In this document: positions 4,203 through 21,384 of the stretch, piece by piece | Numbering within the stretch: the stretch's first letter is position 1 | How the letters are laid out: each line of letters opens with the position of its first letter | Source of the DNA: Candidatus Moraniibacteriota bacterium | Lineage (GTDB): Bacteria; Patescibacteriota; Minisyncoccia; Moranbacterales; GCA-2747515 | Assembly (NCBI GenBank): GCA_046116545.1 | Contig: CP175956.1 | Location: forward strand, 513,734 to 577,733 | DNA length: 64,000 nucleotides | Direction of reading: 5' to 3' | The notes under the pieces: generated by a model | What the model was told of the DNA's origin: nothing | Databases searched by the model: none | The model's input: the letters and a program-made list of their open reading frames with translations, nothing else | Translations under genes and position numbers: made by a program

Positions 4203-4219
4203 AAGTATAATTAGTAGTT

Positions 4220-4564
4220 TTAATTAGATAATAGGGATATGTCATGCAGCATTGTTACTAAAATCTCGTAAGCCTCCTTATATGTTAGCACTTTATCACG
4301 ATTTGTATAGGATATAATGATATCAAAGCCAGGCTTTATTTGAGGGTATAGTTCTGTCATAACAGATTGTAATATTCTACGTTGTCTATTTCTATTAACT
4401 GCTAGTAATGAGTGTTTTTTACCAACAATAAATCCTATTCTAGAGCACTTTTCATGATTCACTCTAAAAGACAACAACACGCCACTGTGAAAGTGACGTT
4501 TGCCATGTTTGAATACTCGTATAAAGTCTTTGTTGTGTCGAAGTCGTTTAGTTCTGCCCAACAT
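4220..4564 (-). CDS. rnpA: RNase P protein component
   Basis: 114 aa basic protein (LRHNKDFIRVFKHGKR...). Sits immediately downstream of rpmH. Confidence 0.8.
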   Translation of the reverse strand: MLGRTKRLRHNKDFIRVFKHGKRHFHSGVLLSFRVNHEKCSRIGFIVGKKHSLLAVNRNRQRRILQSVMTELYPQIKPGFDIIISYTNRDKVLTYKEAYEILVTMLHDISLLSN

Positions 4565-4587
4565 GAAATTATATATATTATAGGTGT

Positions 4588-4722
4588 TTAAACAGAAAGT
4601 TTCGCACGACCTTTTTGTCGTCGTCTTTTCAAAACAAGCTGTCCAGATCGTGTCTGCATTCTTTTTAGAAATCCATGTACACGTTTCCGCTTACCTTTTT
4701 TAGGTTGGTATGTTCGCTTCAT
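4588..4722 (-). CDS. rpmH: 50S ribosomal protein L34
   Basis: Manual translation: [44 protein letters not shown] (44 aa), canonical L34. Not in the supplied ORF track (too short). Confidence 0.9.
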
Positions 4723-5099
4723 AACCGAAATAGTCATTAATTAAATATCCCAATAATCATAGCACTACATTGAACAAAAGTCAATAAAATGAAGGTGATT
4801 GGCAAAATAATTGTTTATATATGAGTGCATGTTGTGTGGTCTATGATAAAGTTATTAACATATACGCAAGTTCCTGTTAATAACTTATCCACATGTTATT
4901 AACTAACTGTGGATAACTCAACACATTTTGTTTATTTGTAGATAAATGCTATAATCCTTTAAGAAGAAATTAACTATATATTTACTATGTATGCATGTAT
5001 AGCATGTGGATAACTAAAGTAAGGTCAACTTGGTGTGAAGTGTCTGGTACATTAAGTATTGTTAGAAGGATTTGTATTTAATTTAATTAGCAATTTAAA
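4723..5099. other. oriC: Chromosomal replication origin (oriC) with DnaA boxes
   Basis: AT-rich rpmH-dnaA spacer. Perfect DnaA boxes: TTATCCACA at 4885-4893, TGTGGATAA at 4908-4916 and 5006-5014. Confidence 0.7.
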
Positions 5100-6512
5100 G
5101 TGATGAATAATTCAGAATTGTGGCGTTCAGTTTTGGGGAACATTGAATTGTCTATATCAAAAGCAAATTTTAGCACTTGGTTTAAAAACACAGCAATTTT
5201 ATCTATTGAAAATAATCATGTTGTGGTGGGAGTGCCTAATGGTTTTGCAAAAGAATGGTTGGAGAATAAATATCAATCATATATACTTCAAGCCCTTCGC
5301 AAGGAAACACCAGAAATACATAGTATGAGTTGCGCTGTTTATAATCCGCAAGAGATAGATAATAAGGAAAAATCTAAAGAACAATCTGAGGGAGTTAAAA
5401 ATGACATACAATCTGAAACAAAGAAAATCTCTAGACAAGTTAGCATGCAAAATAATACGACTAGCTCTGATAATTTTACGAAAAATAATATAAGTTTAAA
5501 TTCTAGGTATACATTTGATAATTTCATAGTTGGTGAACACAATGAATTAGCAAAAGCGGCTTGTCATGCAGTTTGTGAAGATGTGGGTAGAATTTATAAT
5601 CCATTATTTATTTATGGAAAAGTGGGACTCGGTAAAACACATTTATTACAATCAATTGGAAACCATGTTCGAGCTGCAGATGCTTCAAAAAAAATTGTTT
5701 ACACAACATCGGAGAGATTTACAGCAGAACTTGTTAATTCTATTAAAAATAACAGAGCAGATAAATTTAAGGAAGAATATCAAAAAGTTGATTTACTTAT
5801 AATTGATGATGTTCAGTTTTTAGCAGGAAAAGAAAAAACACAACAAGAATTTTTTCATATTTTTAATTCTCTATATAACTTAAATAAGCAAATTGTAATT
5901 TCAAGCGACAGACCACCAAAATCTATAAGCACACTGGAAGATAGGTTGCGCTCACGATTTGAAGGAGGGATGATTGTTGATGTTAGTCAACCTGATTTAG
6001 AAACTCGTATCGCAATTCTACGTACCAAGGCTGTTGAAAGAGGTTTCTATCTAAGTGATGATGTATTGCGGTTTATGGCAGAAAATATTAAAAATAATAT
6101 TAGAGAATTGGAGGGAGCGTTAAATAGGGTTATGGCAATTTGTGAGTTATATAAAAAAGAGCCAACTCAGCAAATGGTGGAACAAGCGCTTAGTGAAATA
6201 ATAAAAAGTAATAAAAAAACAGGGGTTCAAAGTAAAAATGTACTGGAAGTAGTTTCAGAATTTTATGAAGTTGATAAAGAAGAGCTATTAAAAAAAGGAC
6301 GTAAAAAGGAAATTGTACGACCTCGTCAGATTGCAATGTATATTTTGCGAGAGGAGATGAACATGTCATATCCAGGGATTGGTAAATATTTTAGTGGACG
6401 TGATCACACAACAGCATTACATGCTGTTGAAAAAATAAAAAGGGAGATTAAAGAAGATGAAAAATTTAAAGATGAAGTTGGATTTTTGAGAGAAAAACTA
6501 TATACGGTATAA
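5100..6512 (+). CDS. dnaA: Chromosomal replication initiator DnaA
   Basis: 470 aa. AAA+ Walker A GKVGLGKTHLL, box VII, C-terminal DNA-binding helix-turn-helix (…RPRQIAMYILREEMN…HTT…). Confidence 0.95.
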   Translation: MMNNSELWRSVLGNIELSISKANFSTWFKNTAILSIENNHVVVGVPNGFAKEWLENKYQSYILQALRKETPEIHSMSCAVYNPQEIDNKEKSKEQSEGVKNDIQSETKKISRQVSMQNNTTSSDNFTKNNISLNSRYTFDNFIVGEHNELAKAACHAVCEDVGRIYNPLFIYGKVGLGKTHLLQSIGNHVRAADASKKIVYTTSERFTAELVNSIKNNRADKFKEEYQKVDLLIIDDVQFLAGKEKTQQEFFHIFNSLYNLNKQIVISSDRPPKSISTLEDRLRSRFEGGMIVDVSQPDLETRIAILRTKAVERGFYLSDDVLRFMAENIKNNIRELEGALNRVMAICELYKKEPTQQMVEQALSEIIKSNKKTGVQSKNVLEVVSEFYEVDKEELLKKGRKKEIVRPRQIAMYILREEMNMSYPGIGKYFSGRDHTTALHAVEKIKREIKEDEKFKDEVGFLREKLYTV

Positions 6513-6551
6513 ATTAATTTGTCGGGGGATATAATCTTTTAATAAAAACTT

Positions 6552-7694
6552 ATGAAAGTAGTTTGCACATATGAAAATTTGAAGAATGCATTGCAAGAAA
6601 CAGAATTTGCAACAAGTAAAAGTGCTCAGTTATCTATTTTGAACAATATTTTAATAGAGACTGATGGAGGTCAGCTTTGTCTTTCGGCTACAAATTTGGA
6701 AATTGGAATTGTTAAAAAAATTCAAGCAAAAATTGATGAGCCAGGTAAAATTGTTGTATCCGCTAGTCTTCTGGGTAGTTTTTTAACAGCTTTAAGAGGA
6801 ACTGAGCATGTAAATATAAGTGTTGAAGGTCGTATTTTAACACTGGAAAGTGGAGCACATAAGGCAAAAATTAATGGTTATGATGTTGAGGACTTCCCGA
6901 TTATTCCTAGCAGCAATGAACAGGATATGATGGAATTATCATTACCTCAACTTAAAACAAGTATATCAAAGGTGTTAAACTTTACATCAAAAGCTGAGAC
7001 TAGGGTAGAGTTGACTGGTGTTTTCATGTCATTTGAAGAAGAATCGATTTGTTCTGTTGCAACAGATAGCTTTAGACTTGGGGAAATGTGTGTGCCATTT
7101 AAAGATTTGATAATTAATAAGGGAACAGGTAATGCTTTAACTGAAAATAATCAACAAATAATATTACCACAGCAATTGTGTGTATATATTAATAGACTCT
7201 CAGATGAACATAAGACAATTCAGTGTAGTATAGAGGAAAACCATTTGTTTTTAATTTGTGATGATCTATATATAACTGCGAGATTAATTGATGGAGCATA
7301 TCCTGACTATAAGCAAATTATACCAACTAGCTCAGTAACCAATGTAATTATAAAAAAAGATGCTTTATTGGAGGCTATGAAAGTGACAACTGTGTTTACA
7401 GGAAAAGAAAGCGGAGAAATACATTTTGATATAAATGAAGGAAAATTAAAAATCACAACAAGACAACAGGAAGTCGGTGAAAACACAACGGAATTAGATA
7501 TTGATTTAAAAGGGGATGCTCAAAATATTGTATTAAATCCTCGTTTTGTAATTGATGGTGTTGGTAAAATTGATGCCGAAAATATTAATATTGCAATAAA
7601 TGGAAATGCAGCGCCAGTTGTGTTTAGAGGTTTTGATAATGAGGAGCTTGATGAAAAGTATACTTATATAGTCATGCCAGTTAAGAGCGCATAA
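6552..7694 (+). CDS. dnaN: DNA polymerase III beta sliding clamp
   Basis: 380 aa immediately after dnaA. Three-domain clamp pattern. Confidence 0.9.
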   Translation: MKVVCTYENLKNALQETEFATSKSAQLSILNNILIETDGGQLCLSATNLEIGIVKKIQAKIDEPGKIVVSASLLGSFLTALRGTEHVNISVEGRILTLESGAHKAKINGYDVEDFPIIPSSNEQDMMELSLPQLKTSISKVLNFTSKAETRVELTGVFMSFEEESICSVATDSFRLGEMCVPFKDLIINKGTGNALTENNQQIILPQQLCVYINRLSDEHKTIQCSIEENHLFLICDDLYITARLIDGAYPDYKQIIPTSSVTNVIIKKDALLEAMKVTTVFTGKESGEIHFDINEGKLKITTRQQEVGENTTELDIDLKGDAQNIVLNPRFVIDGVGKIDAENINIAINGNAAPVVFRGFDNEELDEKYTYIVMPVKSA

Positions 7695-7699
7695 TATAC

Positions 7700-8002
7700 A
7701 TGAAAAACATAACAGATTATATTGCAAGCAAGCAAAAGAAGGTCAAAAAACAGAGAAAAAATAATGTGGAAATAGATTCTCAGACAGTGATGCATCTATT
7801 TTCTTTATCTGTTCGAGATGAATATGGTAGACAAGGCGAAAAGAATATAGTGCCAAAATTTTATAAAAATGGCATTATATTTGTTAGTATACAAAATTCT
7901 ATTTGGGCTCAAGAGTTATGGATGAATAGGAGTTTGTTTGTAAAAAATTTAAATGAAAAAATTGGTCGTGATGTTGTGAAAAATATTAAAATAGCAACTT
8001 AA
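7700..8002 (+). CDS. DUF721 (DciA-like) protein
   Basis: 100 aa. ...IIFVSIQNSIWAQELWMNRSLFVKNLNEKIGRDVVKNIKI matches the DUF721 signature (…V.v.ssaWaqEL.....l...lN..lG...i..I…) recalled from memory. Canonical position next to dnaN. Confidence 0.5.
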   Translation: MKNITDYIASKQKKVKKQRKNNVEIDSQTVMHLFSLSVRDEYGRQGEKNIVPKFYKNGIIFVSIQNSIWAQELWMNRSLFVKNLNEKIGRDVVKNIKIAT

Positions 8003-8017
8003 TTTGGAAGACTTGCT

Positions 8018-8056
8018 AAAAACCCACCCTATTTTTAAATATAGGGTGGGTTTTTA
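8018..8056. terminator. Rho-independent terminator (bidirectional hairpin)
   Basis: aaaaacccaccctat-ttttaaat-atagggtgggttttt: perfect stem flanked by A-run and T-run. Confidence 0.7.
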
Positions 8057-8082
8057 TAATAGTATATGTTGTAATTTAAGAC

Positions 8083-10770
8083 TTAATAAGCTACATCAAC
8101 TGTATTTTTAGCAGAGGCTGTATTTCCAGCATCATCAGTTAATTTAACTTCTATTTCAAGCGTTGAATTATTCTGGTCTTCGGGTATTTTATATTTATAA
8201 GTAGAATCTTTTGATTCATGAACTTTTTTACCCTTAACCCAATACTCTATTTTATCGATGTCATATTCAGTTTCTGGAGTTACTTTTATCGTGAGTGTAT
8301 CAGATTCAACTTTGCTTGGAACTGACAATGATATTTTTGCAGTATATTTTTCAAAATCATCCTTCTCGCAATCATCAGGTTCTTCGTCAAATATTATTTT
8401 GTCATCTTCTTCTTTCTTGTAATATTTTAGTACAGCTTTTTCCCAGTTTTTATACTGAGGATCATCTTTAGGATCATCTGGTCGTTCTCCTTGTGGATCA
8501 TCTTTAATTACAAAATATAAAATATTATGAACATCAGCAAAAATTCGTCTTTTCTTTTTGCTATCTGGACAGTATTTATTTGCTTTACAATACTCATCGT
8601 CATCGTCAGGAAGTTCACATACTTCTATTTTGTCCATAGCAGGTAATTCTCCATCCAAGATATCTTTATCTGTTTTATTTTCATCTTTATCATATTTTGG
8701 AAATTCTTTTCCAGATATTTCTGGATAAGCTTCACGTATAAAATCACGGAATATGGGTCCAGAGGCATTAGCTCCCACACCACCACTATTCATGGAGGAA
8801 TTGTCATTATTGCCACTCCAGACTCCAACAGCAACTTCTGGAGTATATCCCATGGTCCAAGCATCTCGATTTTCATTAGTTGTACCAGTTTTAGCAGCAA
8901 CTGGCCTATCATCAAATTTAAGAGGATTATTTGCACCAAATGCATCAACTCTATACTTATTTGTAGAAAGTATGTGTGACAGCATTCCGACATATTTTTC
9001 ATCAACTATACGTTCACCCTCTGAATCAGTAGCTTCTTCAATGAGTTCACCATTTTTATCTTCTATCTTTAGAATGGATCTTTTAGTTTGGCGCACTCCA
9101 TTATTTGCAAATACAGAAAAGGCAGCCGTGTGATCAAGTAGTTTAACTTCGCCTCCACCAAGAACAAGTGAAAGTCCATATCTATCAGGATCATTCAAGC
9201 TTGTTATTCCAAGTTGTTTTGCAAATTCAATAACCTCTTTTGAATTTGCTAAGTAAAGAGTTTTTACAGCTGGTATATTTAGAGACATTCCAAGTGCTTC
9301 TTTCATTTTTAGAGGTCCCCGGAAGGTTCCATCATAATTTTGAGGACTATAATCATCTTCACCATTGCTAAAGTTTGTTTCAACATCATAAAGAATTGTT
9401 TCTGGTGTATAGCCTTTTTTAAATGCATAAATATAGGCATAAGGTTTAAATGATGAGCCTGGCTGTCTATCTCTTACAGAAACATTTACTTGTCCATCTA
9501 TTTCTTCATCAAAATAGTCTCTAGAGCCAACCATTGTCACTATGTCTCCATTCGAAGGATCAATAGCTGTTAGAGCAGAGTTTTCAGCGTTATATTTTTC
9601 TTTATTTTCAAAGGCTTTATCATGAACAATTCTTTCAGCTATCTGCTGTTTATCCCAATCAAGTGTTGTAATAACTGTTAAACCTTCTTTTTCCAAATAT
9701 TCATTTCCATACTTTTCTTCCAAAAAATCACGTACGTACATTACAAAATGGGGTGCTTTAATATTTTCTGTATTTTTAGTTAGTTTTGCAAAAACATCTT
9801 CTTTTTTTGCACTTTCAGCAGCCTCTGGGGAAATGTATCCAAGACTAACCATTTGATCCAAAGCGTATTCTTGGCGAGTTTTTAAGCGCTCTCTGTAGGA
9901 ACCATAAGGAGAATATTTTGAAGGTGCTTTTGGTAGGGAAGCTAAAATAGTCGCTTCATCTAGTGTGAGGTCTTTTGCATGTTTTCCGAAAAATGTTTGA
10001 GCAGCTGCTTCAATGCCATATGCATTTGAACCATATGGAATTTCATTTAGATACATGCCTATTATGTCATCTTTTGAAAATTTGAGTTCAATTTCAACGG
10101 CAAGTATTAATTCTTTTATTTTTCTAGAAAGGCTACGTTCATTTGTAAGGATGGAATTTTTTACAAACTGTTGCGTAATGGTAGAACCACCACGTCCGCC
10201 TCCAATGTTAAACACATTTGATAAAACAGCATTAGCAACACCTTTAACATCAAAACCAGGGTGATTATAAAAATTATGATCTTCTAGAGAGATTGTTGCT
10301 TGTTTTGCAACGAGTGGAATTTCATCATGAGGAATGATAGTTCGCTTTTCTTCACCATGAATATCATAAAGAAGTACAGTTCCAGTGCGGTCATAAATTT
10401 TTGTGCTTTCATCAATTGTGCGTGTATTAACTTTTCCTGGTTCAGGTAAATCTTTTGCAAAATAAGCAAAAATACCAATAGCAGCTAGTAGTCCAATAGC
10501 AAATAAAACAGCAAAAATTTTTGTAGCTAGTAATGCCCATTTCCTCCAACTATTTTCAGTGTTATTTTTTCTCTTGTTTTTCCTTTTCTTTTTTATCATA
10601 GAAGTTTGAGAAATATTAAGTTGCGTAGTATTTGGATAAACTTTAGATTGTTCTTTTTTGAATTTACCAAAAAACAATGCAGTTGATTTTTTGCATTTAG
10701 TTACTAATTTAGTTACCGAATTTACTCGAGGTTTTTTATCAAAATCACGAGGAGAATACATTTTTTTCAT
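8083..10770 (-). CDS. Class A penicillin-binding protein (glycosyltransferase + transpeptidase) with C-terminal Ig-like extension
   Basis: 895 aa. N-terminal TM. GT51 motifs (EDHNFYNHPG, GGSTITQQ). Transpeptidase SSFKP and KTGTT motifs. Confidence 0.85.
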   Translation of the reverse strand: MKKMYSPRDFDKKPRVNSVTKLVTKCKKSTALFFGKFKKEQSKVYPNTTQLNISQTSMIKKKRKNKRKNNTENSWRKWALLATKIFAVLFAIGLLAAIGIFAYFAKDLPEPGKVNTRTIDESTKIYDRTGTVLLYDIHGEEKRTIIPHDEIPLVAKQATISLEDHNFYNHPGFDVKGVANAVLSNVFNIGGGRGGSTITQQFVKNSILTNERSLSRKIKELILAVEIELKFSKDDIIGMYLNEIPYGSNAYGIEAAAQTFFGKHAKDLTLDEATILASLPKAPSKYSPYGSYRERLKTRQEYALDQMVSLGYISPEAAESAKKEDVFAKLTKNTENIKAPHFVMYVRDFLEEKYGNEYLEKEGLTVITTLDWDKQQIAERIVHDKAFENKEKYNAENSALTAIDPSNGDIVTMVGSRDYFDEEIDGQVNVSVRDRQPGSSFKPYAYIYAFKKGYTPETILYDVETNFSNGEDDYSPQNYDGTFRGPLKMKEALGMSLNIPAVKTLYLANSKEVIEFAKQLGITSLNDPDRYGLSLVLGGGEVKLLDHTAAFSVFANNGVRQTKRSILKIEDKNGELIEEATDSEGERIVDEKYVGMLSHILSTNKYRVDAFGANNPLKFDDRPVAAKTGTTNENRDAWTMGYTPEVAVGVWSGNNDNSSMNSGGVGANASGPIFRDFIREAYPEISGKEFPKYDKDENKTDKDILDGELPAMDKIEVCELPDDDDEYCKANKYCPDSKKKRRIFADVHNILYFVIKDDPQGERPDDPKDDPQYKNWEKAVLKYYKKEEDDKIIFDEEPDDCEKDDFEKYTAKISLSVPSKVESDTLTIKVTPETEYDIDKIEYWVKGKKVHESKDSTYKYKIPEDQNNSTLEIEVKLTDDAGNTASAKNTVDVAY

Positions 10771-10869
10771 ATACCTTTATAATACACTTTTTAATCGTTT
10801 CTGAAAAATGATTGCGTATAGTATATATGAAAAATATGTAAATGTACAGTAATTATTTTTTAAGAGTAT

Positions 10870-11691
10870 TTAATTTTTTTCTGTAATATTTAGGGGGTGT
10901 CTTTTTGAAAGTAGATTGTCTAATAATACTTTTGCCAAATTAATATTGGTTTGTGTAAAATAACTATTGAATAAACATGTTCTATTTATTTCTATCAAAA
11001 AAAATCCAGATTCAGTAATTGCCAAATCTAGCCCAATAAGGTCAAAGGTGTTTTTTTTTATTATTTTTTGAGTAAAATTTAATATATCTAAGGATAATAT
11101 TTCTGAACCTATGACTTTAACTTTGGAGGTTAAAGTTTTTGAACTTTTAACAGTTGCCTCAGGTAATACCTCATTGCAAACTACATATATACGATATTCT
11201 TTTTGTATATGCATTTTATCTTGAATAATATATTTGTTTAAATTCATTTCATCCAATTCAGTTGAATCAAAGAAAATACCTTCAGCTCTACCAGAAATTC
11301 TTTCTTTTGTAATACGATTTTTATTATCTGCATCAGTGATCGAATTTAGTAATTGAGTTTTTGGCATAAAATCAGTAAATATTTGATATTGTAACCACTT
11401 ATCTTCAAAATAAATATCATCAATAGTTTTTAAATTATCAATAATATAGGCATCTTTTTTATTCTTTAATAAAATATCAAAAAGAGATGTTGCAGCATTT
11501 TTATCAAGAACACGGAAATGATATCCAAAGTATATGTAATCATAAGTGTTGTTAATTAATTTTTCTTTCAAATAAGTAGAGCTTTCATGAAAAAAATAAA
11601 AATCTATATCAACTACTGCTTGCATTTCTTGAGTTATATATAGAGGTAATGATAAATCGTTAATTCCAGTTATTAGCAGCATTTTTTTCAT
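10870..11691 (-). CDS. Divergent ATP-grasp-like ligase (hypothetical)
   Basis: 273 aa. C-terminal ...EYRIYVVCNEV...FDLIGLDLAITESGFFLIEINRTC... resembles the ATP-grasp C-domain (E/R..., GxD...lEvN). Last gene of the ATP-grasp block. Confidence 0.4.
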   Translation of the reverse strand: MKKMLLITGINDLSLPLYITQEMQAVVDIDFYFFHESSTYLKEKLINNTYDYIYFGYHFRVLDKNAATSLFDILLKNKKDAYIIDNLKTIDDIYFEDKWLQYQIFTDFMPKTQLLNSITDADNKNRITKERISGRAEGIFFDSTELDEMNLNKYIIQDKMHIQKEYRIYVVCNEVLPEATVKSSKTLTSKVKVIGSEILSLDILNFTQKIIKKNTFDLIGLDLAITESGFFLIEINRTCLFNSYFTQTNINLAKVLLDNLLSKRHPLNITEKN

Positions 11692-11837
11692 ATTGAGCTA
11701 TTTTAGTTATTTAAATAGGAAGTTAGTAGATATTATTGAATAAACTAGTGGGTTACTAGTATTTTTATGATTTCATTTGTAATATTCAATATTAAAAGTT
11801 TTTTGTAAATAAACTTTTTTAATTATAAATAATAGAA

Positions 11838-12788
11838 TTAAGATGAAAGTGTTTTTTTAAATAATTCTATAATAGCTGTATAAACCCGTTCTCTTTCCTC
11901 GAATTGTTTTTCAGTAAAAAATAAACCAGGCATACTATTTAATTCAATTAGCCAAGGCTTTTGATTTTCATCAAACATTAAATCTATTGTATATATTTTA
12001 TTTTTAAATGTAGAGAGTGTATTTTGTACATCAGTAACTAATGTGTTAACACTGGTAGGCAATTGTTCATTTTGTAGTATCTTCATTGAACCGCCCTGGG
12101 ATAAATTAGCAAGGAAAGATCCTTTTTTAGGAATTCTTATGTAACTATAAATCAAGTCATTTTCTATAAAAACGAGTCGCAAATCATGTACAGAATCTGT
12201 AATCCCAGTTATTCCATTAGTGCTGTCTATAAATTCTTGTGCCAAGATTGGAAAGGGTAGTTCAACATTATCGATTTCATTTTTTTGTAAAATATATACA
12301 TTTTTACCTCCACTATCTGAAGATGTTTTTAAAACAACCTTTTCAGTTTTAATGCTTTGAAGGATGCTTTTTAAATCAGTAATATTTAAAGCCTTATAGT
12401 GTTTTTTAGTGTGTTGTGGAAAAAGTAAGCTTGTAAATAATTTATTATCTATAAGATTTGTAAATTCAACATCATTTATAAGGGGAAATATTTCATTGAG
12501 TGATGATTTAAATAAATCAGTTTCAGATTTTGAGCTAGTTTTATCATAAATAAGATCTGGTTTTATATTATAATCACGTATCCAAGAGCCATTTTTATAT
12601 GTCCAAACATATAAAAAAATATTATTTTTATTATCATACCATTTATAAGAAGCTCTATATAATTGAATTCCATGTTGGTTAGCTAATTCATATAGATATT
12701 CATAACAAAGAGTATACCCACTAGTCATATCTGCAAAAGCTGGTCCATTCCAATCCTTTTCACCAAATAATATTAGTACTTTTTTCAT
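11838..12788 (-). CDS. ATP-grasp ligase (RimK/YheCD-like), paralog 2
   Basis: 316 aa. ...ILAQEFIDS...HDLRLVFIEND..YSYIRIPKKGSFLANLSQGGSMKIL...YTIDLMFDENQKPWLIELNSMPGL. Paralogous to 12793..13734. Confidence 0.65.
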   Translation of the reverse strand: MKKVLILFGEKDWNGPAFADMTSGYTLCYEYLYELANQHGIQLYRASYKWYDNKNNIFLYVWTYKNGSWIRDYNIKPDLIYDKTSSKSETDLFKSSLNEIFPLINDVEFTNLIDNKLFTSLLFPQHTKKHYKALNITDLKSILQSIKTEKVVLKTSSDSGGKNVYILQKNEIDNVELPFPILAQEFIDSTNGITGITDSVHDLRLVFIENDLIYSYIRIPKKGSFLANLSQGGSMKILQNEQLPTSVNTLVTDVQNTLSTFKNKIYTIDLMFDENQKPWLIELNSMPGLFFTEKQFEERERVYTAIIELFKKTLSS

Positions 12789-12792
12789 AGTT

Positions 12793-13734
12793 TTATTTAA
12801 AAAATGTTAATAAATTTTCATAAAATTCACTTTGATAAGGTGCTTCACTTTGTTCTAATGTTAATCCAGGTCTAGAATTCATTTCTATAAGCCATAAGTT
12901 ATTATCATTATCAAACATACAATCAATAGCATATATTTTATTTGTAGCATCAATATTTTCTACATTTTGTATAATTTTATTGATAAATTTGTTGATGTCA
13001 TTATTTTGTAAAAGTTCTTTTATTGGAATTACTTTTAGTGTAGCGCCTGTTGATACATTTGCAATACGAGTGTCTTTTTTTGGTATTCGAGCAAATGCGT
13101 AAAAAGGTGTTTGATTTCTAACTATAACTCGGATATCATGATATCCATCAATAAATTCATTCTTCGCTTTTGATGAATCCATAAATTCCTGAGCTAAAAT
13201 AGGGAATATATTGTTTGATATAATATCATTGGCGACAGCTTCTTTTTTTGAAATAAAAATACCAGAACCACCAGATTGACTTAGGGGTTTCACAATAATA
13301 TCAGATGTTTGTAGTGCTATAATTTTAGTTACTTCACTAGGCATATTGATAACAATTGTTTTTGCAGAAAATTCTTCAAAAAAATCAAATGTAAGTGATT
13401 TATTACTTAGGATTTTACTTAATGTCAAATTATTATAAAAAGTGTAATCAGTTGCTATTAATTGCCTAGTCAGCATCTCGCTGGAGTTAATGTAATAGGG
13501 CGATTTGTCATAGATTACATCTGGTGTTATGTTTTTTTTCCAAAGCCAGTTATCATTAATAAAAAATTGTGCTTGTGTAAATGAATTACTTTGAGTATCA
13601 TAATATGATATCGGTGCACGACACAGTATTATATTATTTTTTGCAAAGTATGTATATAAGGCGCTATAACCCAGAGGATCCTTTGTTGGAGATTTAGAAG
13701 GTTCTCCACCAAAAAGAATTAGTATTGTTTGCAT
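12793..13734 (-). CDS. ATP-grasp ligase (RimK/YheCD-like), paralog 1
   Basis: 313 aa. ...KPLSQSGGSGIF...ILAQEFMDS...HDIRVIVRN..FYAFARIPKKDTRIANVSTGATLKVI...YAIDCMFDNDNNLWLIEMNSRPGL. Confidence 0.65.
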   Translation of the reverse strand: MQTILILFGGEPSKSPTKDPLGYSALYTYFAKNNIILCRAPISYYDTQSNSFTQAQFFINDNWLWKKNITPDVIYDKSPYYINSSEMLTRQLIATDYTFYNNLTLSKILSNKSLTFDFFEEFSAKTIVINMPSEVTKIIALQTSDIIVKPLSQSGGSGIFISKKEAVANDIISNNIFPILAQEFMDSSKAKNEFIDGYHDIRVIVRNQTPFYAFARIPKKDTRIANVSTGATLKVIPIKELLQNNDINKFINKIIQNVENIDATNKIYAIDCMFDNDNNLWLIEMNSRPGLTLEQSEAPYQSEFYENLLTFFK

Positions 13735-13751
13735 ATTATTTTTTAAGTTTT

Positions 13752-15155
13752 TTACTTACTAACATCAACTAAAAATTGATGTAGATTTCGTTTGCCAATA
13801 ATTATATCATATTTCATATCACTTCTATCAATAATGTTTACTTGAGCAGGAATTATTTTTTTATCCATTGTAAATTTAGTCTTTACAATAGGGCGAATTG
13901 AGGAGCCACTTGATGCAAAAATTACTGCCACGTCAACTAAATCAGGGATTTTATTTTCAGCTAGAATAGCTTTTTTAATAGACTTTTCGTTTTTTGGAGT
14001 AATCTCGTATTTAGTTAAATCAATTTTATCAAATTCATTTATTACATGTTCAAATCCGAGTGATTTAGCAAGTTTTGTGTCTATTGATGTTGAATAAGCA
14101 CCAGTATCAATTTTTGCTTTTGTTTTAATCTCTGTATTATTTTTTCCGATAATTTTAATTTCTTCAATAGAGCCAATGACATTTTTACCAGACATTCCTT
14201 CAACCTCTTCTTCAATTTCACCACCAAAGAGATTTTTGCCAACAGCTGCTCCACGTATTGCAGATTTAATTTTTAGTCCTTCTACACGTTCAAGTCGACG
14301 TTTAAGTCCTGCCATATTTGCGACTTGGATAGAAAGTCCTGGTCGGGCATTAAGTTCAAGAAATACAGGTCCATTATCTCTATCAATTGCAACATCAGCA
14401 CCTAAAAAACCAAGTCCGGAGGCTTCTTGTGCTTTGATGGCGAGTATTAACATTTCATCCCAGTATGGAATTTTGATACCAGAAAGCAGTAAACGTGTTC
14501 CAGGTACATACTCTATAATTTTTGACTTTCCTTGTACGGCAGTTGTCGTTGTACCTCTAGCCATATCAATTCCAACACCAACACCACCTTGTTGTAAGTT
14601 TGCTTTACCTCCAGATTCTTTTGTGGGAAGTCGAAGCATTGCCATTACGGGTACTTTATTATATATAACAATACGAATATCTGGAATACCTTTATAGGCA
14701 TATGGACGAAACTCTTTTGATAATTTGAGACGTTCTTCAAAAAAAGCTATATCAGGGGTATTTGAAAGGGAATACTCACCATCTAAAATATGTCCTATAT
14801 GAGTTATCAAATCTTCTTTTGTGACTGTTTTGCCATTTCCTTTAATCCAGATGTCATCAGTTCCTTTTTTGCGACCATAAATAACTATAATACCATCACC
14901 ACCAAGACCTTTATTTGGTTTTATAACAAAACTTGGAGGTAGAATACTCCAATCAAAACTTTCTAATGTACGTTTAGAAGAAATTTGTGCAATAAGTCTT
15001 GGGACAGGGACGCCTGCTTTTTTGAGCATACGTTTCGAACGAATCTTGTCATCTGCAAGTCGCTTTGCTTTTTTAAGGTTGTGTGGGCGAATATATGTTA
15101 AATTTCGGGCATTCATCCCAAGTATGTTTTTGCTTGCGCGTATTGATTCAAACAT
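13752..15155 (-). CDS. ATP-grasp ligase (alpha-L-glutamate-ligase-related / ATPgrasp_ST-like) fused to C-terminal retropepsin-like aspartyl-protease domain
   Basis: 467 aa. N-terminal ILGMNARNLTYIRPHN motif, then an ATP-grasp core (...GGDGIIV...FEERL...DIRIVIY...RLPTKESGGKANLQQGGVGV...FLGADVAIDRDNGPVFLELNARPGL). C-terminal ~130 aa with KIDTGAYSTSID (D-T-G-A), compatible with a DUF785 / 'Zn_protease'-type retropepsin domain. Confidence 0.6.
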   Translation of the reverse strand: MFESIRASKNILGMNARNLTYIRPHNLKKAKRLADDKIRSKRMLKKAGVPVPRLIAQISSKRTLESFDWSILPPSFVIKPNKGLGGDGIIVIYGRKKGTDDIWIKGNGKTVTKEDLITHIGHILDGEYSLSNTPDIAFFEERLKLSKEFRPYAYKGIPDIRIVIYNKVPVMAMLRLPTKESGGKANLQQGGVGVGIDMARGTTTTAVQGKSKIIEYVPGTRLLLSGIKIPYWDEMLILAIKAQEASGLGFLGADVAIDRDNGPVFLELNARPGLSIQVANMAGLKRRLERVEGLKIKSAIRGAAVGKNLFGGEIEEEVEGMSGKNVIGSIEEIKIIGKNNTEIKTKAKIDTGAYSTSIDTKLAKSLGFEHVINEFDKIDLTKYEITPKNEKSIKKAILAENKIPDLVDVAVIFASSGSSIRPIVKTKFTMDKKIIPAQVNIIDRSDMKYDIIIGKRNLHQFLVDVSK

Positions 15156-15162
15156 GGGATTT

Positions 15163-15855
15163 TTATTTAATCTTATTTATAACATTGTGAAATCTTAGGT
15201 ACTCATTAAAACGAAGACCTGTCCATTTACCAATGAAAAGATTTATAGGAATAATTAATAAAACAGTAAGTGGGTGGACAAGTATAAGACTTATCATGTA
15301 TCTACCAATAGCAGTAGTTGGTGAAAGAATTGTATATCCAATAAGCGCTATAATTAGCGTTTCAACTGCTAATATAATTGCAGTTTTGTTTCCTTTTTCA
15401 ATTTGTACAGTAACAAATTTTTCAACAAGCATTATTATGATGATAATCGGGAAAATGGCAGTTGATGCAAAACCAGTCCTTCCAAAATATCCAGCAAGTG
15501 CAAGTGTTAAAAGGACGGAAAAGGATACTACAGTTAAGTTTATAGCAACTCTAGGAAGATAAAGTAAACGTAATTTTTTCAATACAAAACGCATACCCAT
15601 ACCAACACAAAGGACTATTGCATAAATAGCAACAGCATATTTAATATCCCAAAAGCTATCTTGTGCAATAAATACAAAAGCAATTGTAATAATAGATGGT
15701 GTATAAATACCAAATGCCTGTATACCAACTATTTGACGCAAAACAACAACGATTGTTATTACTATAGGAAATAACAATAGTAGAGTAATAGTATCTAGAT
15801 TAAGTTGTTGTGCGAGTAAAAATTGTATAATAGGACTGAAGTCAGTTACATTCAT
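15163..15855 (-). CDS. 7-TM integral membrane protein (7TM_transglut-like, no transglutaminase domain)
   Basis: 230 aa with seven hydrophobic helices. 8-nt gap to the ATP-grasp/protease fusion gene. Matches the 7TM partner of ATPgrasp_ST systems by context and topology only. Confidence 0.45.
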   Translation of the reverse strand: MNVTDFSPIIQFLLAQQLNLDTITLLLLFPIVITIVVVLRQIVGIQAFGIYTPSIITIAFVFIAQDSFWDIKYAVAIYAIVLCVGMGMRFVLKKLRLLYLPRVAINLTVVSFSVLLTLALAGYFGRTGFASTAIFPIIIIIMLVEKFVTVQIEKGNKTAIILAVETLIIALIGYTILSPTTAIGRYMISLILVHPLTVLLIIPINLFIGKWTGLRFNEYLRFHNVINKIK

Positions 15856-15882
15856 AGCTTTTGTTATTAAATAGTTATAATT

Positions 15883-16383
15883 CTATTTTGTAATTGTATT
15901 TAAATATTTTCTAGAATTAATGTGACATAGTGCTACAGCAAGTGCATCAGCTGTGTCATCGGGTTTTGGAATACTCTTTAATTTTAACACACTTTTTATC
16001 ATTTTTTGCATTTGCGTTTTGTCAGCTCGGCCATAACCAGTAAGTGATTGTTTTATCTGAAGCGGTGTGTATTCTGCAATTTTTAAACCATCTCTAAAGC
16101 AAGTATTCATAATGACACCACGGGCCTGTGCAACACTTATGACAGTTTTTGCATTTTTAAAATAAAACAAGTCTTCAACTGCAGCTTCAGCAGGTTTGTA
16201 TTTTTTTAAAATAGCAAGTACGTTATCAGTAATTTCTGATAATCTAACAACATCAGACAGTTCTTTTGCTGTCTCGATGTGACCGTATGCAATAACATTA
16301 TTTTTTGTTCCACTATCATTACAGTCAATTATACCCCAACCAACAATAGCAGTACCAGGATCAATCCCAAGTATTCTAATCAT
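15883..16383 (-). CDS. ruvC: Holliday junction resolvase RuvC
   Basis: 166 aa. MIRILGIDPGTAIVGWGII... RNase H-like RuvC start. Confidence 0.85.
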   Translation of the reverse strand: MIRILGIDPGTAIVGWGIIDCNDSGTKNNVIAYGHIETAKELSDVVRLSEITDNVLAILKKYKPAEAAVEDLFYFKNAKTVISVAQARGVIMNTCFRDGLKIAEYTPLQIKQSLTGYGRADKTQMQKMIKSVLKLKSIPKPDDTADALAVALCHINSRKYLNTITK

Positions 16384-16416
16384 ATTTTTATCTTAGAATG
16401 TAGTATTTTAGCACTT

Positions 16417-17124
16417 TTAGGCAACATTGTCAAAGATTTCATTAACATCATCTAGCTCTTCAAGTATTTCGTAAAGATCATCATATTTTTCTGTATCTTC
16501 AGTATTTAGAGTTACTTGTTGTGTTGGATTATATATTAATTTTGCTTCATTTATGGATTCAGCTTCTTTTTCAATTCCTTTTAAGACATTATGCAGACTT
16601 GTAGGACTAGTTATTATTGTTAGATTTGAGTTTTCTTCAAATACATCTTCAGCACCAGCCTCTATAGCAAGTAATTCAGCAGTTTCTATGTCTTTTGGTG
16701 TAATTGATATATAGCCAACAAAATCAAATTGAAAACTTACGCTGCCACTAGGCACAAATTTACCATTATTTTTTTTGAGTGCAGTTTTAACGTCTGTTAA
16801 AGCACGGTTAGTATTATCAGTTGCGCATGTGATAATCATCATTGCCCCACCAGGACCCATACCTTCATAGGTGACTTCTTCAATTCTAGCACTATCATCA
16901 CCAGAGCCTTTTTTCATAGCACGTTCGATATTGTCTTTTGGCATATTAGCTTTTTTTGCTTGGTCTATAGCTAATTTTAAAGCACTATTCATTTCTGGAT
17001 CATTATCTCCATTTTGTACAGCTACCATGATAGCTTTCGCAATACGAGAGAAAACTTTAGATCGTTTAGCATCTGTAACACCTTTTTTATGTTTAATTGT
17101 TGACCATTTACTATGTCCTGACAT
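16417..17124 (-). CDS. yebC: YebC/PmpR family DNA-binding transcriptional regulator
   Basis: 235 aa. MSGHSKWSTIKHKKG... canonical N-terminus. Confidence 0.9.
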   Translation of the reverse strand: MSGHSKWSTIKHKKGVTDAKRSKVFSRIAKAIMVAVQNGDNDPEMNSALKLAIDQAKKANMPKDNIERAMKKGSGDDSARIEEVTYEGMGPGGAMMIITCATDNTNRALTDVKTALKKNNGKFVPSGSVSFQFDFVGYISITPKDIETAELLAIEAGAEDVFEENSNLTIITSPTSLHNVLKGIEKEAESINEAKLIYNPTQQVTLNTEDTEKYDDLYEILEELDDVNEIFDNVA

Positions 17125-17288
17125 AAGTTAGTAGAAGATTAAATATTTTAAAAGTGATTATATCATCTCATTTTTTAGTACTTTTTGCAATTATAGTGTT
17201 GATTTTTTGGACATTATAGCATATGATGTATAATCAGTTTCTAAAAGGAATTATTTGTACTTGAAAAATTAAATAAGGGGAATGTGAG

Positions 17289-18390: not shown

Positions 18391-18424
18391 AAACCAACAA
18401 AGATAAATCTTTGTTGGTTTTTAT
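18391..18424. terminator. Bidirectional rho-independent terminator
   Basis: aaaccaacaaagataaatctttgttggttttt hairpin between convergent genes. Confidence 0.6.
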
Positions 18425-21384
18425 TTACATAAGTCAAATTTTTGTGAAGTGGGTGTTGTAAAAAGATAGGGCTTTTCACATGGTTGGGTTGGTAAATCTA
18501 TTTGTGTAGGCGTATAAGAATATGCCAAGACTTGATTTAATTTCAATGTTTCAGAGAAAGATTGGGCTATTAGAATAGTTTTATGCAAAAGAGAGTTTAT
18601 ATTTTGCAGAAGTGTTACAAACAAGTTTGAATTTGTCTGTACAATATCTCGTGAAGTATTGTTGGAAGAATTGTAAACAGCATTTATGGCGACTTTATTT
18701 TCCAAAATTTGTTGAGAAAACATTTTTTCATTTTTAATTGCTTGAGAAATAATTTGTTGAGTTTGATGTTGTTTTTCTAAATTAACTGGAATGGTCCATG
18801 TCCAGATACCATCAATTTTTTCAAATGATGAATTGTCTTGTATAGATATGTCTTTATGACCATATTTTTGTTTATCGGCAACGGATCCATTTGGACGACG
18901 AATTTCTATAACACCTGTTTTGTTAGGGAGACTGATAGCTGTATATTTTTTGGTTATTTTTTTAGTTTTTCCAGGCTTTAATATTAATTTGTCATAAATT
19001 GGATGATTCACTAAAGTTTTTTCTTTTACTCCTGTGGCGATGCTCCAATTTTGGAGATTAATTTTTTCTTTACTTTCATTTTTTATAATAATATATTCAA
19101 CACCACTATCTTTTCCGCTAGGATTTGGAACTATTTTTGTAATTTCAATTTTGTGTTTGGGGTATTTTTTGACGGTAACAGTGAATTTTTTTATTATTTC
19201 TTCACTTTTATCTTGAATTCGTAGGTTGCCATGATAAGTACCAGTTTTTGTGTATCTGTGTCGAGTTTTCCATAAATAACTTTTACGACCATCACCAAAG
19301 TCCCAACGAACTTTTAATTTCTCGCTATCTTTGTCAGTAGCTTTTGTTTTAAAATTAGCATAAACATTTTTATAAGAATTTTTATCTATATCAAATTTTG
19401 TAATGGTTGGAAGATTATTAAAAACATTCTTTTTGCTAGGTGTTAAATATTTGCTCCATCGCCAACTTTTTGAATCAGTATTGTAATTGTAAGAAATATC
19501 TTCTCGGGATGATTTATAAGATATTGAGCTTACTATTTTTTCGTTTGGTGCTGTGAGTGAGACGGTTTCATTGCTATTATTTAGTGCAAAAGAAAAATTT
19601 TTCCTGTAAATTGTGAAAAATGATTTTGGTTCAATGTACTGTTTAGTTGGAAATGTGTAGGTGCCAGTCTTGGAAGAATCTTTTAGCATCCAATTTTTAA
19701 GGTTAATTTTAATGTTGTTTGGATTATAAATTTCTATAAATTCATCAGTTTTTTCAACACCACTTGGATTTGGAAGTATCTCATTTAATAATAATTTAGG
19801 ATATTTTATAGTGCGTGGATCAATTGCATTTTTTGTACCAGGAGTTGGTTCTGCATTATACCAATATTCAGCATAATTTATAGACTTGCCTTTTTGAGAA
19901 TCATTGTATTTGATTTGTGAAGTAATGGAACAGTTAGGTGCAATGAGTGAAATATTATCTCCAGAATTATTTAGAGTGAACCTGAAATGGTCTTTTGTAA
20001 GTTTGATATAAAGTAAGGTTGTGTCTGGGTTTTTGTTTTCTAATGTTCCAGAAATTGTTGAGGAATCTGTTAATTTCCAACCATCTAAAGATACTTTGTC
20101 AGGATTGTAAAGTTCAATAAATTCTTCTGTTTCTGTGCAATGGGGAGTATCTTTTTTGCAAGGATTAGGATAAATTTCATTTATACGAACAGTACTAGAT
20201 AAATTTGTAGGCAAATAATCACCAGGAAAAGGACATTTGTTTATATGAAAATCAGCTTTATTGTTGTCAGTGTCAATATATTTACCATCTTTTTTATTTC
20301 GCTCAATACTTTCATTTTTGTTTGGACTTTGAGTTGATGTTTCTTCATATAAACAAGTATTTCCGAAGCCAACTTTATCAATGATATTGTCGTTATCATC
20401 GTATAAAATAATCGTTGAATCATTAGTTATGGTAGCACTTTGACTAGAGAATGTAATACTATTAGTCCAAGCAGGCTTAGGATTATCCTTATGTGTGATT
20501 ATGAGATATTTGTGAGCTTCGATCACGCCAGTAAAAGCGCGTGAAGATATAAGATTTTTATCTTTTTTTATTTTATCACACTTATTTTTATCTGTTGTTC
20601 TAGTTATATTTCTTTTCAAACTATAACCATTGAGAATGATATTTTTATCAGTTGTATTATATAATTCTATGTATTCCTCATGATGTTTTGAGTTGGAGGC
20701 GGAAGTATCCAATAATATTTCAGTAATGAGGATAGTTTTTTCTATAATTGGAATATCTTCTAGTGGAATCTCAGATTTATTTTTTGTAAGAGGTTTTGTG
20801 ATAGTTTGTATAGTTTCTTTACTTGTACTTGTAGGTTCAAAATTTATGTCTGTATCACTAGCATCTTGTTTCATTGGAGGAGTTTCAGTATATGCCTCGA
20901 TAGAGTGCTCTGTAGAGATATCTTTTTGTTTAGGCAGGCTTTCTTTTGAAATAGATTCATTTTCAATAGTCTTTTCTTTTTCTTGTGATGTAGTAGATTC
21001 ATTTTGAGATGTGGAAATAGAGTCACAATCCGATTCTACTGTCTTTGTTTCAGATTTATCAGCAGTAATTTTTGTGGATTTGGAGGGTTTTTCATCTTTT
21101 GTAATCGATTTTTTATCTGTATCTTTTTTTGTAGTGGACAGACATGTCTGTCCACTACAGTTATCAACATCTTCTATGTCAGAAGTAGTTATGTCAGATT
21201 TGGATTTCTCACTATTTTTGGTAGAAATAGGCTTTGCATCAGTGGAGTTAGTGGTAGTCTCATCAAGAGAAAAAACACTATGTGAAAACAAAGAAAAAAG
21301 ACAAAATAATAATAAAATACCTTTAAGAAGTGTAGGGGATAATATGGTAAAAACTTTTTTCATACAAAAATAAGTTAGCAACAA
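18421..21384 (-). CDS. Large secreted surface protein with four lamin-tail-domain (LTD) repeats, a PKD domain and a Ser/Thr-rich low-complexity linker
   Basis: 987 aa. Signal peptide, then a long S/T/K/D/E-rich region. Repeated ...NEI(L/Y)PNP...(E/D)(F/Y)IE(I/L)YN(P/T)... (LTD) occurs four times. WDFGDGRKS...GTYHGNLRIQD is PKD-like. Confidence 0.7.
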   Translation of the reverse strand: MLLTYFCMKKVFTILSPTLLKGILLLFCLFSLFSHSVFSLDETTTNSTDAKPISTKNSEKSKSDITTSDIEDVDNCSGQTCLSTTKKDTDKKSITKDEKPSKSTKITADKSETKTVESDCDSISTSQNESTTSQEKEKTIENESISKESLPKQKDISTEHSIEAYTETPPMKQDASDTDINFEPTSTSKETIQTITKPLTKNKSEIPLEDIPIIEKTILITEILLDTSASNSKHHEEYIELYNTTDKNIILNGYSLKRNITRTTDKNKCDKIKKDKNLISSRAFTGVIEAHKYLIITHKDNPKPAWTNSITFSSQSATITNDSTIILYDDNDNIIDKVGFGNTCLYEETSTQSPNKNESIERNKKDGKYIDTDNNKADFHINKCPFPGDYLPTNLSSTVRINEIYPNPCKKDTPHCTETEEFIELYNPDKVSLDGWKLTDSSTISGTLENKNPDTTLLYIKLTKDHFRFTLNNSGDNISLIAPNCSITSQIKYNDSQKGKSINYAEYWYNAEPTPGTKNAIDPRTIKYPKLLLNEILPNPSGVEKTDEFIEIYNPNNIKINLKNWMLKDSSKTGTYTFPTKQYIEPKSFFTIYRKNFSFALNNSNETVSLTAPNEKIVSSISYKSSREDISYNYNTDSKSWRWSKYLTPSKKNVFNNLPTITKFDIDKNSYKNVYANFKTKATDKDSEKLKVRWDFGDGRKSYLWKTRHRYTKTGTYHGNLRIQDKSEEIIKKFTVTVKKYPKHKIEITKIVPNPSGKDSGVEYIIIKNESKEKINLQNWSIATGVKEKTLVNHPIYDKLILKPGKTKKITKKYTAISLPNKTGVIEIRRPNGSVADKQKYGHKDISIQDNSSFEKIDGIWTWTIPVNLEKQHQTQQIISQAIKNEKMFSQQILENKVAINAVYNSSNNTSRDIVQTNSNLFVTLLQNINSLLHKTILIAQSFSETLKLNQVLAYSYTPTQIDLPTQPCEKPYLFTTPTSQKFDLCK

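Follow-up and report, generated by a model that had tools for sequence, protein, structure and literature searches.

In a 64,000-nucleotide (nt) stretch of DNA from a Candidatus Moraniibacteriota bacterium (contig CP175956.1, positions 513,734 to 577,733; hereafter the window), four contiguous ATP-grasp ligase genes run between the gene of a membrane protein and that of the class A penicillin-binding protein PBP1A. The first encodes a ligase fused to a retropepsin, and forms with the membrane protein a core that is conserved in related genomes; the other three, called here A, B and ORF3 (ORF, open reading frame), are the local version of a mosaic cassette. That cassette is a combinatorial set of amide-bond makers and breakers, in which A and B are exchanged together. 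The reading favoured here, to which a probability of about one-half is given, is that core and cassette ligases act stepwise or in combination, joining amino acids to a peptide related to the cell envelope. The genes, in the order of their reading direction, and the spacer that interrupts them are as follows.

16417-17124, minus strand: YebC; 33 nt gap to RuvC
15883-16383, minus strand: RuvC; 27 nt gap to the seven-transmembrane (7TM) gene
15883-17124, minus strand: RuvC and YebC together, the conserved upstream frame (gene-order table; Pfam labels on related loci)
15163-15855, minus strand: 7TM protein, conserved membrane partner with an RloB-type seven-helix domain (PF14402); 7 nt gap to the fusion gene
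13752-15155, minus strand: fusion protein, 467 amino acids (aa), RloC-type ATP-grasp ligase with a C-terminal retropepsin (Pfam); 17 nt gap to A
12793-13734, minus strand: ligase A, 313 aa, ATP-grasp amino-acid ligase (Pfam GSH-S_ATP, RimK); 4 nt gap to B
11838-12788, minus strand: ligase B, 316 aa, ATP-grasp amino-acid ligase (Pfam RimK); 146 nt gap to ORF3
11692-11837, no strand: AT-rich spacer, 146 nt, 17% G+C, the left border of the swapped A+B segment
10870-11691, minus strand: ORF3, divergent RimK/LysX-like ATP-grasp ligase (family alignment, model); 99 nt gap to PBP1A
8083-10770, minus strand: PBP1A, class A penicillin-binding protein, the downstream anchor (Pfam Transgly 6.7e-59, Transpeptidase 2.2e-17)

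A preliminary description of this stretch had the three ORFs of the cassette at the right coordinates, and missed the two genes directly upstream of A (13752-15155 and 15163-15855); all three ORFs lie on the minus strand. The 7TM gene, the fusion gene, A and B are closely spaced (7, 17 and 4 nt apart), and PBP1A is co-directional with ORF3. RuvC and YebC probably stand functionally outside the system. With the profiles used, no other ATP-grasp gene was found in the window.

A conserved core and an exchangeable cassette

Relatives of the fusion protein occur in 256 species-level genomes, nearly all of them Moraniibacteriota or Parcubacteria. The best 80 loci were fetched, and genes were called and clustered in 84 loci (designated L with a number). 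Moraniibacteriota share a conserved frame, YebC-RuvC-7TM-fusion-cassette-PBP1A: the 7TM gene is present in 82 of the 84 loci, and PBP1A closes the cassette in 67, the rest having no PBP1A within the stretch examined. Between fusion gene and PBP1A, the 67 complete loci carry cassettes of 0-6 genes in 51 architectures; 65 of them have at least one extra ATP-grasp gene (on a conservative count, one in 18 loci, two in 30, three in 17). Pairs of loci whose fusion proteins are at least 85% identical have the same architecture in only 4 of 17 cases; at 75-85% identity, none of 45 pairs does.

The families that fill the cassette are varied. One ligase, g328, resembles the G domain of cyanophycin synthetase standing alone (295 bits, CphA positions 160-471); a stand-alone Mur-type ligase resembles the CphA M domain (209 bits, against 78 bits for MurE); and one protein is CphA-like over nearly its full length. 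There are true RimK-family genes (the c19 family reaches 174 bits on TIGR00768) and RimK fused to DUF3541, and further families comprise MATCAP/QEGLA peptidases, YdjC, GT1 glycosyltransferases and GNAT. The largest cassette seen, on metagenome contig L091 (308-7539), has A, B, four more ATP-grasp genes and a DUF3541 gene between fusion gene and PBP1A, or six ATP-grasp genes besides the fusion gene; two of the ligase genes lie on the opposite strand. In L022 the cassette is empty, with PBP1A directly after the fusion gene; in L018 opposite-strand genes follow the fusion gene, and no PBP1A lies within the stretch examined. The core can exist without extra ligases, as these last two loci show.

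A and B are a unit exchanged by recombination, and in close relatives a g328-like ligase takes their slot wholly or partly. The closest relative found, L008, has a fusion protein 91% identical to that of the window. DNA homology between the two covers 4885-11692 (77%) and 13738-17129 (81%); no alignment was obtained for 11693-13737, precisely the stretch made up of A, B and the spacer, where L008 has g328 together with a member of the A/B family from another clade. The same break in DNA homology is found between the window and L005. A g328 ligase stands in place of A-B in two independent close pairs, window/L008 and L019/L020 (90%), the latter with a single g328 gene as the replacement. The more distant L092 (fusion protein 83%) has kept A at 60% identity and B at 71%. 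Composition also sets the segment apart: its G+C content is 26.9%, against 31.9% for the window, within the lowest 3% of same-sized window stretches.

In seven genomes or contigs (window, L015, L019, L039, L052, L091 and L092) the fusion gene is followed at once by A and then B, the gaps measuring -4 to 7 nt. A third RimK-like ligase (ORF3, c56, g304 or a 294-aa RimK-type protein) comes after A-B in six of the seven, the contig of L092 being too short to judge. Because the A-B order recurs with such a third ligase following, the trio of A, B and a RimK-like enzyme is a recurring module, though each part also occurs without the others.

The two core proteins are a variant of the Pseudomonas RloABC and RimBK systems. 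The fusion protein matches ATPgrasp_ST (PF14397) at 4.4e-67, with 226.6 bits against a cut-off of 31.4, and TIGR02291 at 3.2e-87, where its 292.5 bits fall just below the cut-off of 314.2. Its retropepsin domain takes up residues 322-466 (Zn_protease 1e-10, RloA3 6e-11, DTGA motif); no N-terminal hydrophobic segment is visible in the translation (no signal-peptide predictor was run). The 7TM protein, of 230 aa, matches PF14402 at 9.2e-26 over profile positions 55-247 of 248. On the RloB model NF052267 it scores 76 bits (cut-off 900) and matches only positions 312-506 of 508.

A study of 2025 described RloABC in P. aeruginosa: polyglutamate is cleaved by RimB and by RloA, by the latter in vitro; when rloB or rloC is deleted, the defects of a mutant lacking the protease are suppressed; cell shape and the sensitivity to ampicillin and to hypo-osmotic conditions are affected; and the authors suspect peptidoglycan enzymes (PMC12239564). 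The Moraniibacteriota locus shares with RloABC an RloC-type ligase (ATPgrasp_ST/TIGR02291), an RloB-type seven-helix domain and a retropepsin-like protease, in one co-directional cluster. It differs in several respects: the ligase carries the protease as a C-terminal fusion, with no visible signal peptide, whereas RloA is separate and secreted; the membrane protein lacks the inactive transglutaminase-like domain of RloB; one to several extra ATP-grasp ligases (three in the window) occupy a hypervariable cassette; PBP1A is the neighbour in all 67 complete loci; and the host is a bacterium of the candidate phyla radiation (CPR), whereas RloB is reported to be 96% proteobacterial. RimK-RimB(-RimA) offers a second parallel, a RimK-superfamily ligase with a cytoplasmic polyglutamate-cleaving retropepsin, and both fold and profile place B and ORF3 nearest to RimK. 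In this case the differences are that no window gene reaches the RimK family cut-off, that there is a 7TM partner, and that several ligases stand where Rim has one; S6, the target of Rim, would here be a conjectural one.

ATP-grasp ligase clusters, RimBK and RloABC are already known; no description of the CPR variant, with its ligase-retropepsin fusion, 7TM-only partner, PBP1A linkage and hypervariable cassette, was found in the literature searched. In Pseudomonas, Rlo-type systems influence how sensitive cells are to beta-lactams, their shape, their osmotic tolerance and the formation of biofilm; in Moraniibacteriota the system is reduced, fused and PBP1A-linked. Its natural library of alternative ligase cassettes supplies concrete enzyme sets, such as A, B and ORF3 plus the fusion protein, that can be tested in the search for the product.

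The typical Moraniibacteriota locus also turns up in many records under the titles Micavibrio, Bdellovibrionales, Pseudobdellovibrionaceae or Bathyarchaeia (L014, L017, L022, L026, L028, L030, L031, L034, L038, L042, L043, L049 and others); mislabelled or contaminated bins are the likely cause.

The cassette ligases A, B and ORF3

A and B can be aligned over their whole length (31% identity, 52% positives, E 2e-49), in agreement with the full-length paralogy first proposed for them, and the motifs then quoted, ILAQEF, HDxR, RIPKK, IDxMFD and WLIExNSxPGL, are found in both. Taken to mean a local duplication, the term tandem paralogues is not supported: a neighbour-joining tree built from 51 members of the family in related loci puts the two into deeply separated clades, and by this tree they are ancient separate lineages, not recent duplicates. 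Genes of the narrowly distributed A clade occupy the first cassette position after the fusion gene in eight of eight cases; the B family occurs in Moraniibacteriota and Parcubacteria. A word-indexed search returned only 9 homologues of A, more than 280 of B and 19 of ORF3.

A lack of significant ATP-grasp profile matches had been named as the outcome that would speak against the proposal; A and B pass the Pfam gathering cut-offs for ATP-grasp families, so that objection falls away for both. The families concerned overlap (RimK, GSH-S_ATP, YheCD and TTL, each passed by both proteins). A scores 44.7 bits against a cut-off of 23 on GSH-S_ATP (1.3e-11) and 43 against 21 on RimK (5.1e-11); B scores 46.1 against 21 on RimK (5.5e-12). 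On the curated RimK family TIGR00768, with its cut-off of 143.4 bits, A has 37.0 bits, B 36.8, ORF3 23.7 and the fusion protein 48.9. The RimK alpha-L-glutamate ligase identity, under which NCBI names A and B, was accordingly rejected (about 37 bits against 143.4). For A, B and ORF3, 'RimK family alpha-L-glutamate ligase' is too specific an annotation, and 'hypothetical protein' too empty.

Could the ligases make a small molecule of two or three residues (a peptide osmolyte, for instance, or a thiol resembling glutathione), or glutamylate a cofactor? A scores best on glutathione synthase models (NF003573, 45.6 bits, 4e-12; B has 23.9) and B matches MptN (1.4e-10), the JGI (Joint Genome Institute) and NCBI labels read glutathione synthase or RimK-type, and the Rlo system has been linked to osmotic stress. 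These 41-46 bits compare, however, with cut-offs of 272-350. The GSH-S N-terminal domain PF02951 is not among the Pfam matches of A or B, where no GSH-S_N domain reaches the reporting threshold, and the profiles used found no further ATP-grasp gene in the window. GshB identity for A and B was rejected on the first two of these grounds, the score on NF003573 lying far under its 272 bits. A mosaic cassette, a fused endopeptidase and a membrane partner would also be unexpected for a housekeeping metabolite, and a small-molecule product is very unlikely.

The catalytic set of ATP-grasp enzymes consists of a linker Lys, a strand-2 Lys, an ExR-type Arg, a Mg-binding Asp and an ExN motif (PMC4431377). 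In the A/B family the catalytic residues K116, K154, G160/G161, H201-D202-x-R204, D269 and E282-x-N284 are invariant across 44 sequences. Direct sequence searches of the PDB with A, B and ORF3 gave no matches; profiles and models were needed. The A/B family profile finds Pseudomonas RimK as its best PDB match (6.7e-8) and, weakly, TTLL6 (E about 3e-4). The AlphaFold model of B (mean predicted local distance difference test, pLDDT, 93.4) has RimK 4iwx as its top Foldseek match (3.8e-15), followed by GshB 1gsa (template-modelling score, TM, 0.73), with ArgX and the synapsin C domain also matched. Models of both B and ORF3 have the three-domain ATP-grasp fold, with about 290-335 columns aligned to RimK, ArgX and GshB at TM 0.66-0.73; A, to judge from its full-length alignment to B, would have the same pre-ATP-grasp, RAGNYA and kinase-like domains.

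Within this shared frame the clades differ consistently. The residue after ExNS in ExNS-x-PG is R in A, M in B, and Q or T in two other clades; position 216 is F in A, Y in B, and H or L in others. Because these conserved clade differences adjoin the ExN catalytic motif, different substrates for A and B would fit, and the residues may, from their proximity to that motif, affect substrate choice.

ORF3 had been described as a degenerate gene with C-terminal ATP-grasp features only. It is not degenerate, but a complete, predicted-active three-domain ATP-grasp enzyme of another family than A/B, related over its full length to RimK-like ligases. Taken alone its sequence stays below threshold (R2K_2 E 0.0055, 17 bits against a cut-off of 26.2; TIGR00768 2.7e-5); among 18 family members scanned, 16 match R2K_2 and 10 match RimK (best 8.6e-9). 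Across these 18 sequences K98, K129, R131, E165, R167, D222, E234 and N236 are invariant. The family is well populated: an exhaustive HMMER search at E <= 1e-30 gave the representatives of 121 clusters formed at 50% identity, almost every one of them 250-280 aa long. Profile alignment by hhalign with the RimK-like g304 family of sister cassettes covers 264 columns, the full length, at 99.1% probability and E 8.4e-19, whereas the profile-profile match to the A/B family is limited to the catalytic core. The AlphaFold model (pLDDT 90.1), its Rossmann-like N-terminal domain included, fits ArgX, LysX and RimK at TM of about 0.7, with about 290 columns superposed; ArgX 3vpc is matched at E 8.8e-14 and TM 0.73.

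Two other identities for ORF3 were considered and rejected. One is a decayed copy of A or B: BLASTP shows no similarity to either, and the gene belongs to a conserved, complete family tied to a different RimK-like family. The other is the R2K clade, in which the linker lysine is absent, a second K/R follows the strand-2 Lys instead, and R2K.3 has ExGD for ExN (PMC4431377). In ORF3 the linker lysine is present, which places it outside that clade: the invariant K98, in an EDKW motif, aligns with K112 of g304, the ExN is of the standard form, and R2K_2 remains under its cut-off.

The ORF3 model and profile also match PsnB, MdnC and AMdnB about as strongly as ArgX, which might suggest a graspetide macrocyclase, acting on the precursor of a peptide that is made on the ribosome and modified after translation (RiPP). 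No precursor is adjacent, however: the gap between B and ORF3 has no ORF of at least 20 aa, and that between ORF3 and PBP1A only a 48-codon opposite-strand ORF, mostly overlapping the PBP1A start. Small ORFs after the ORF3 homologue of L088 include at least one MATCAP-type fragment, not a precursor. With ORF3 aligning over its full length to RimK-like ligases as well, a graspetide origin can practically be set aside.

ORF3, or a relative at least 59% identical to it, ends the cassette on the PBP1A side in the window, L005, L008, L088 and L089; less similar relatives sit elsewhere in the genome. Some have a peptidase for a neighbour. An intact MATCAP/QEGLA-family metallopeptidase gene follows the ORF3 homologue in L005 (8804-10087) and L007 (5654-7027), and remnants of a MATCAP gene follow it in L088 (3287-3863), where a 49-aa ORF, accompanied by a second small ORF, resembles by eye the N-terminus of the L005 MATCAP protein, suggesting that it is part of a decayed gene. 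In the window tblastn found no MATCAP gene; its lineage appears to have lost it. Nothing relevant on MATCAP together with ATP-grasp genes in bacteria was found in the literature searched.

Such peptidases bring to mind protein tailing, in which ligases attach amino acids to one specific protein, made from a gene outside the locus, at its C-terminus or on acidic side chains, and retropepsin and MATCAP-type peptidases erase the marks. RimK acts in this manner on ribosomal protein S6, LysX and ArgX on LysW, and the tubulin ligases, with MATCAP, on tubulin. The best structure and profile matches of B and ORF3 are RimK, ArgX and LysX, all acting on protein C-termini, with TTLL6 besides; ORF3 homologues adjoin the MATCAP genes, intact (L005, L007) or as remnants (L088); and the fused protease is RimB-like and appears cytoplasmic. 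Nevertheless, no cassette contains a target or carrier gene, the window is without a MATCAP gene, and the 7TM partner, together with the glycosyltransferase, YdjC and CphA-like genes of sister cassettes, speaks against a soluble protein target. Tailing is regarded as unlikely. The likeness to the tubulin code lies in paralogous ATP-grasp ligases (TTL/TTLL) that divide labour, in the MATCAP-family peptidases of sister loci, and in the weak TTLL6 match of the A/B profile, with A and B both passing the Pfam TTL cut-off; it is an analogy only, with no tubulin-like target present.

The spacer upstream of ORF3 had been given a length of 147 nt and considered as the possible site of a separate promoter. 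It measures 146 nt, and a special role for it is not supported: it has no Rfam match, no terminator and, as noted above, no ORF of at least 20 aa. The only promoter site in it scores 9/12, which is chance level (the region scanned has 44 such sites, and shuffled versions have 37 +/- 7); a promoter is, from sequence, neither excluded nor indicated. The gap between ORF3 homologues and the preceding gene is 6-8 nt in four of them and 100 nt in L008, the 146 nt of the window being the longest seen. The spacer does coincide with the recombination border, DNA homology to L008 and L005 ending at 11692/11693.

Possible products of the locus

ATP-grasp ligases use ATP to phosphorylate a carboxylate; the acyl-phosphate is attacked by an amino group, and an amide bond, ADP and phosphate result. 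In the favoured reading, the core ligase, working at the membrane, would make or prime an acidic chain, either a peptide or a poly-amino acid; A and B would act on this chain as a coupled pair; RimK-like ORF3 might add further residues or a cap, giving a species-specific peptide; the fused retropepsin could trim the peptide or set its length; and the product would act in or on the cell envelope alongside PBP1A. The peptide extended or decorated is probably short and non-ribosomal, with a make-up that differs between species. Part of this idea was already present in the suggestion of serial ligases: several distinct predicted-active ligases in a co-directional run, a preserved A-B order and clade differences near ExN are all consistent with serial or divided-labour ligation, while the third gene is not degenerate and a local duplication is not supported.

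Cyanophycin synthetase, CphA, provides a precedent for more than one ligase activity on a single polymer: an ATP-grasp G domain builds the backbone and a Mur-ligase-like M domain adds the side chain. Sister cassettes have stand-alone G-like, stand-alone M-like and near-full CphA-like genes at the same position, and a G-domain-like ligase takes the A+B slot in close relatives, so that several amide ligases might likewise serve one polymer. A, B and ORF3 themselves, however, are not CphA-like, and an N domain is lacking.

Several observations weigh against such stepwise ligation. A, B and ORF3 all score far under the curated cut-off of each characterised ligase family, and such matches give no hint even of which class of amino acid is used. 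The locus has no carrier or target gene with an acidic C-terminus: the 7TM protein and the fusion protein have basic C-terminal residues, and an acidic C-terminal acceptor tail was not found on either of them or on PBP1A. The gaps of 146 and 99 nt interrupt the run, and co-transcription across both is presumptive. The retropepsin, by its sequence, appears cytoplasmic, unlike the secreted RloA, which makes the Rlo parallel incomplete. Finally, with dnaA, dnaN and dciA close by (5100-8002), the adjacency of PBP1A could be passive synteny near a replication origin.

The same adjacency admits a second perspective, in which the ligases tailor peptidoglycan: they would add stem-peptide amino acids or a cross-bridge on lipid II or UDP-MurNAc-peptide, and the diversity of cassettes would be a diversity of chemotypes. 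ATP-grasp enzymes are familiar as cell-wall ligases, in Ddl and in the D-aspartate ligases of Gram-positive bacteria. PBP1A lies immediately downstream and co-directional in 67 of 67 complete loci; mutants in the Pseudomonas Rlo system have phenotypes like those of cell-wall defects (PMC12239564); and some cassettes include Mur-ligase-like genes. Yet for these Mur-like genes the score on the CphA M domain, 209 bits, far exceeds the 78 bits on MurE, and A, B and ORF3 are weak on Ddl models (13-22 bits). Nor are a retropepsin and MATCAP-type carboxypeptidases among the known cell-wall tailoring enzymes, and in one locus, L022, the cassette is empty. Peptidoglycan tailoring is judged unlikely.

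Stepwise ligation onto an envelope-related peptide can be carried one step further, as a tentative proposal that is given well under even odds: the recombining island might be a 'peptide code', in which an Rlo-like core and interchangeable cassettes of amide ligases, peptidases and glycosyltransferases build a species-specific, non-ribosomal polyamide or glycopeptide that works with PBP1A in the CPR envelope. If so, the A-B-RimK-like trio would be one allele of this code, and the strict PBP1A linkage would give comparative genomics its first pointer to the substrate pathway of Rlo-type systems. Whatever its chemistry, the cassette marks a rapidly diversifying, probably envelope-related trait in small-genome CPR bacteria, which are thought to depend on other cells.

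Surroundings of the locus

The window has yidC, rnpA, dnaA, dnaN and dciA at 3438-8002, and because of these genes the chromosomal replication origin probably lies inside it, a few kilobases from the ligase locus. Related loci repeat the neighbourhood PBP1A, dciA, dnaN, dnaA, rpmH, rnpA. PBP1A itself (8083-10770) has a lysine-rich N-terminal extension of about 85 residues ahead of its membrane helix, and an acidic, Cys-containing C-terminal region that ends in an Ig-like domain; the C-termini of its relatives differ, many of them with an aromatic last residue.

No Shine-Dalgarno motif is recognisable at the nine starts inspected (8083-17124); as it is absent upstream of every gene in the run, it is uninformative on translational coupling. 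The best promoter-like site of the region, TTGACA-17-TAAAAT with an extended TG (11/12), lies at 16433-16405, just upstream of ruvC. Further upstream, 18421-21384 (minus strand) encodes a 987-aa protein with four lamin-tail domains (LTD), a PKD domain and a TTG start; similar LTD/PKD proteins are also found upstream of YebC in L002 and L005.

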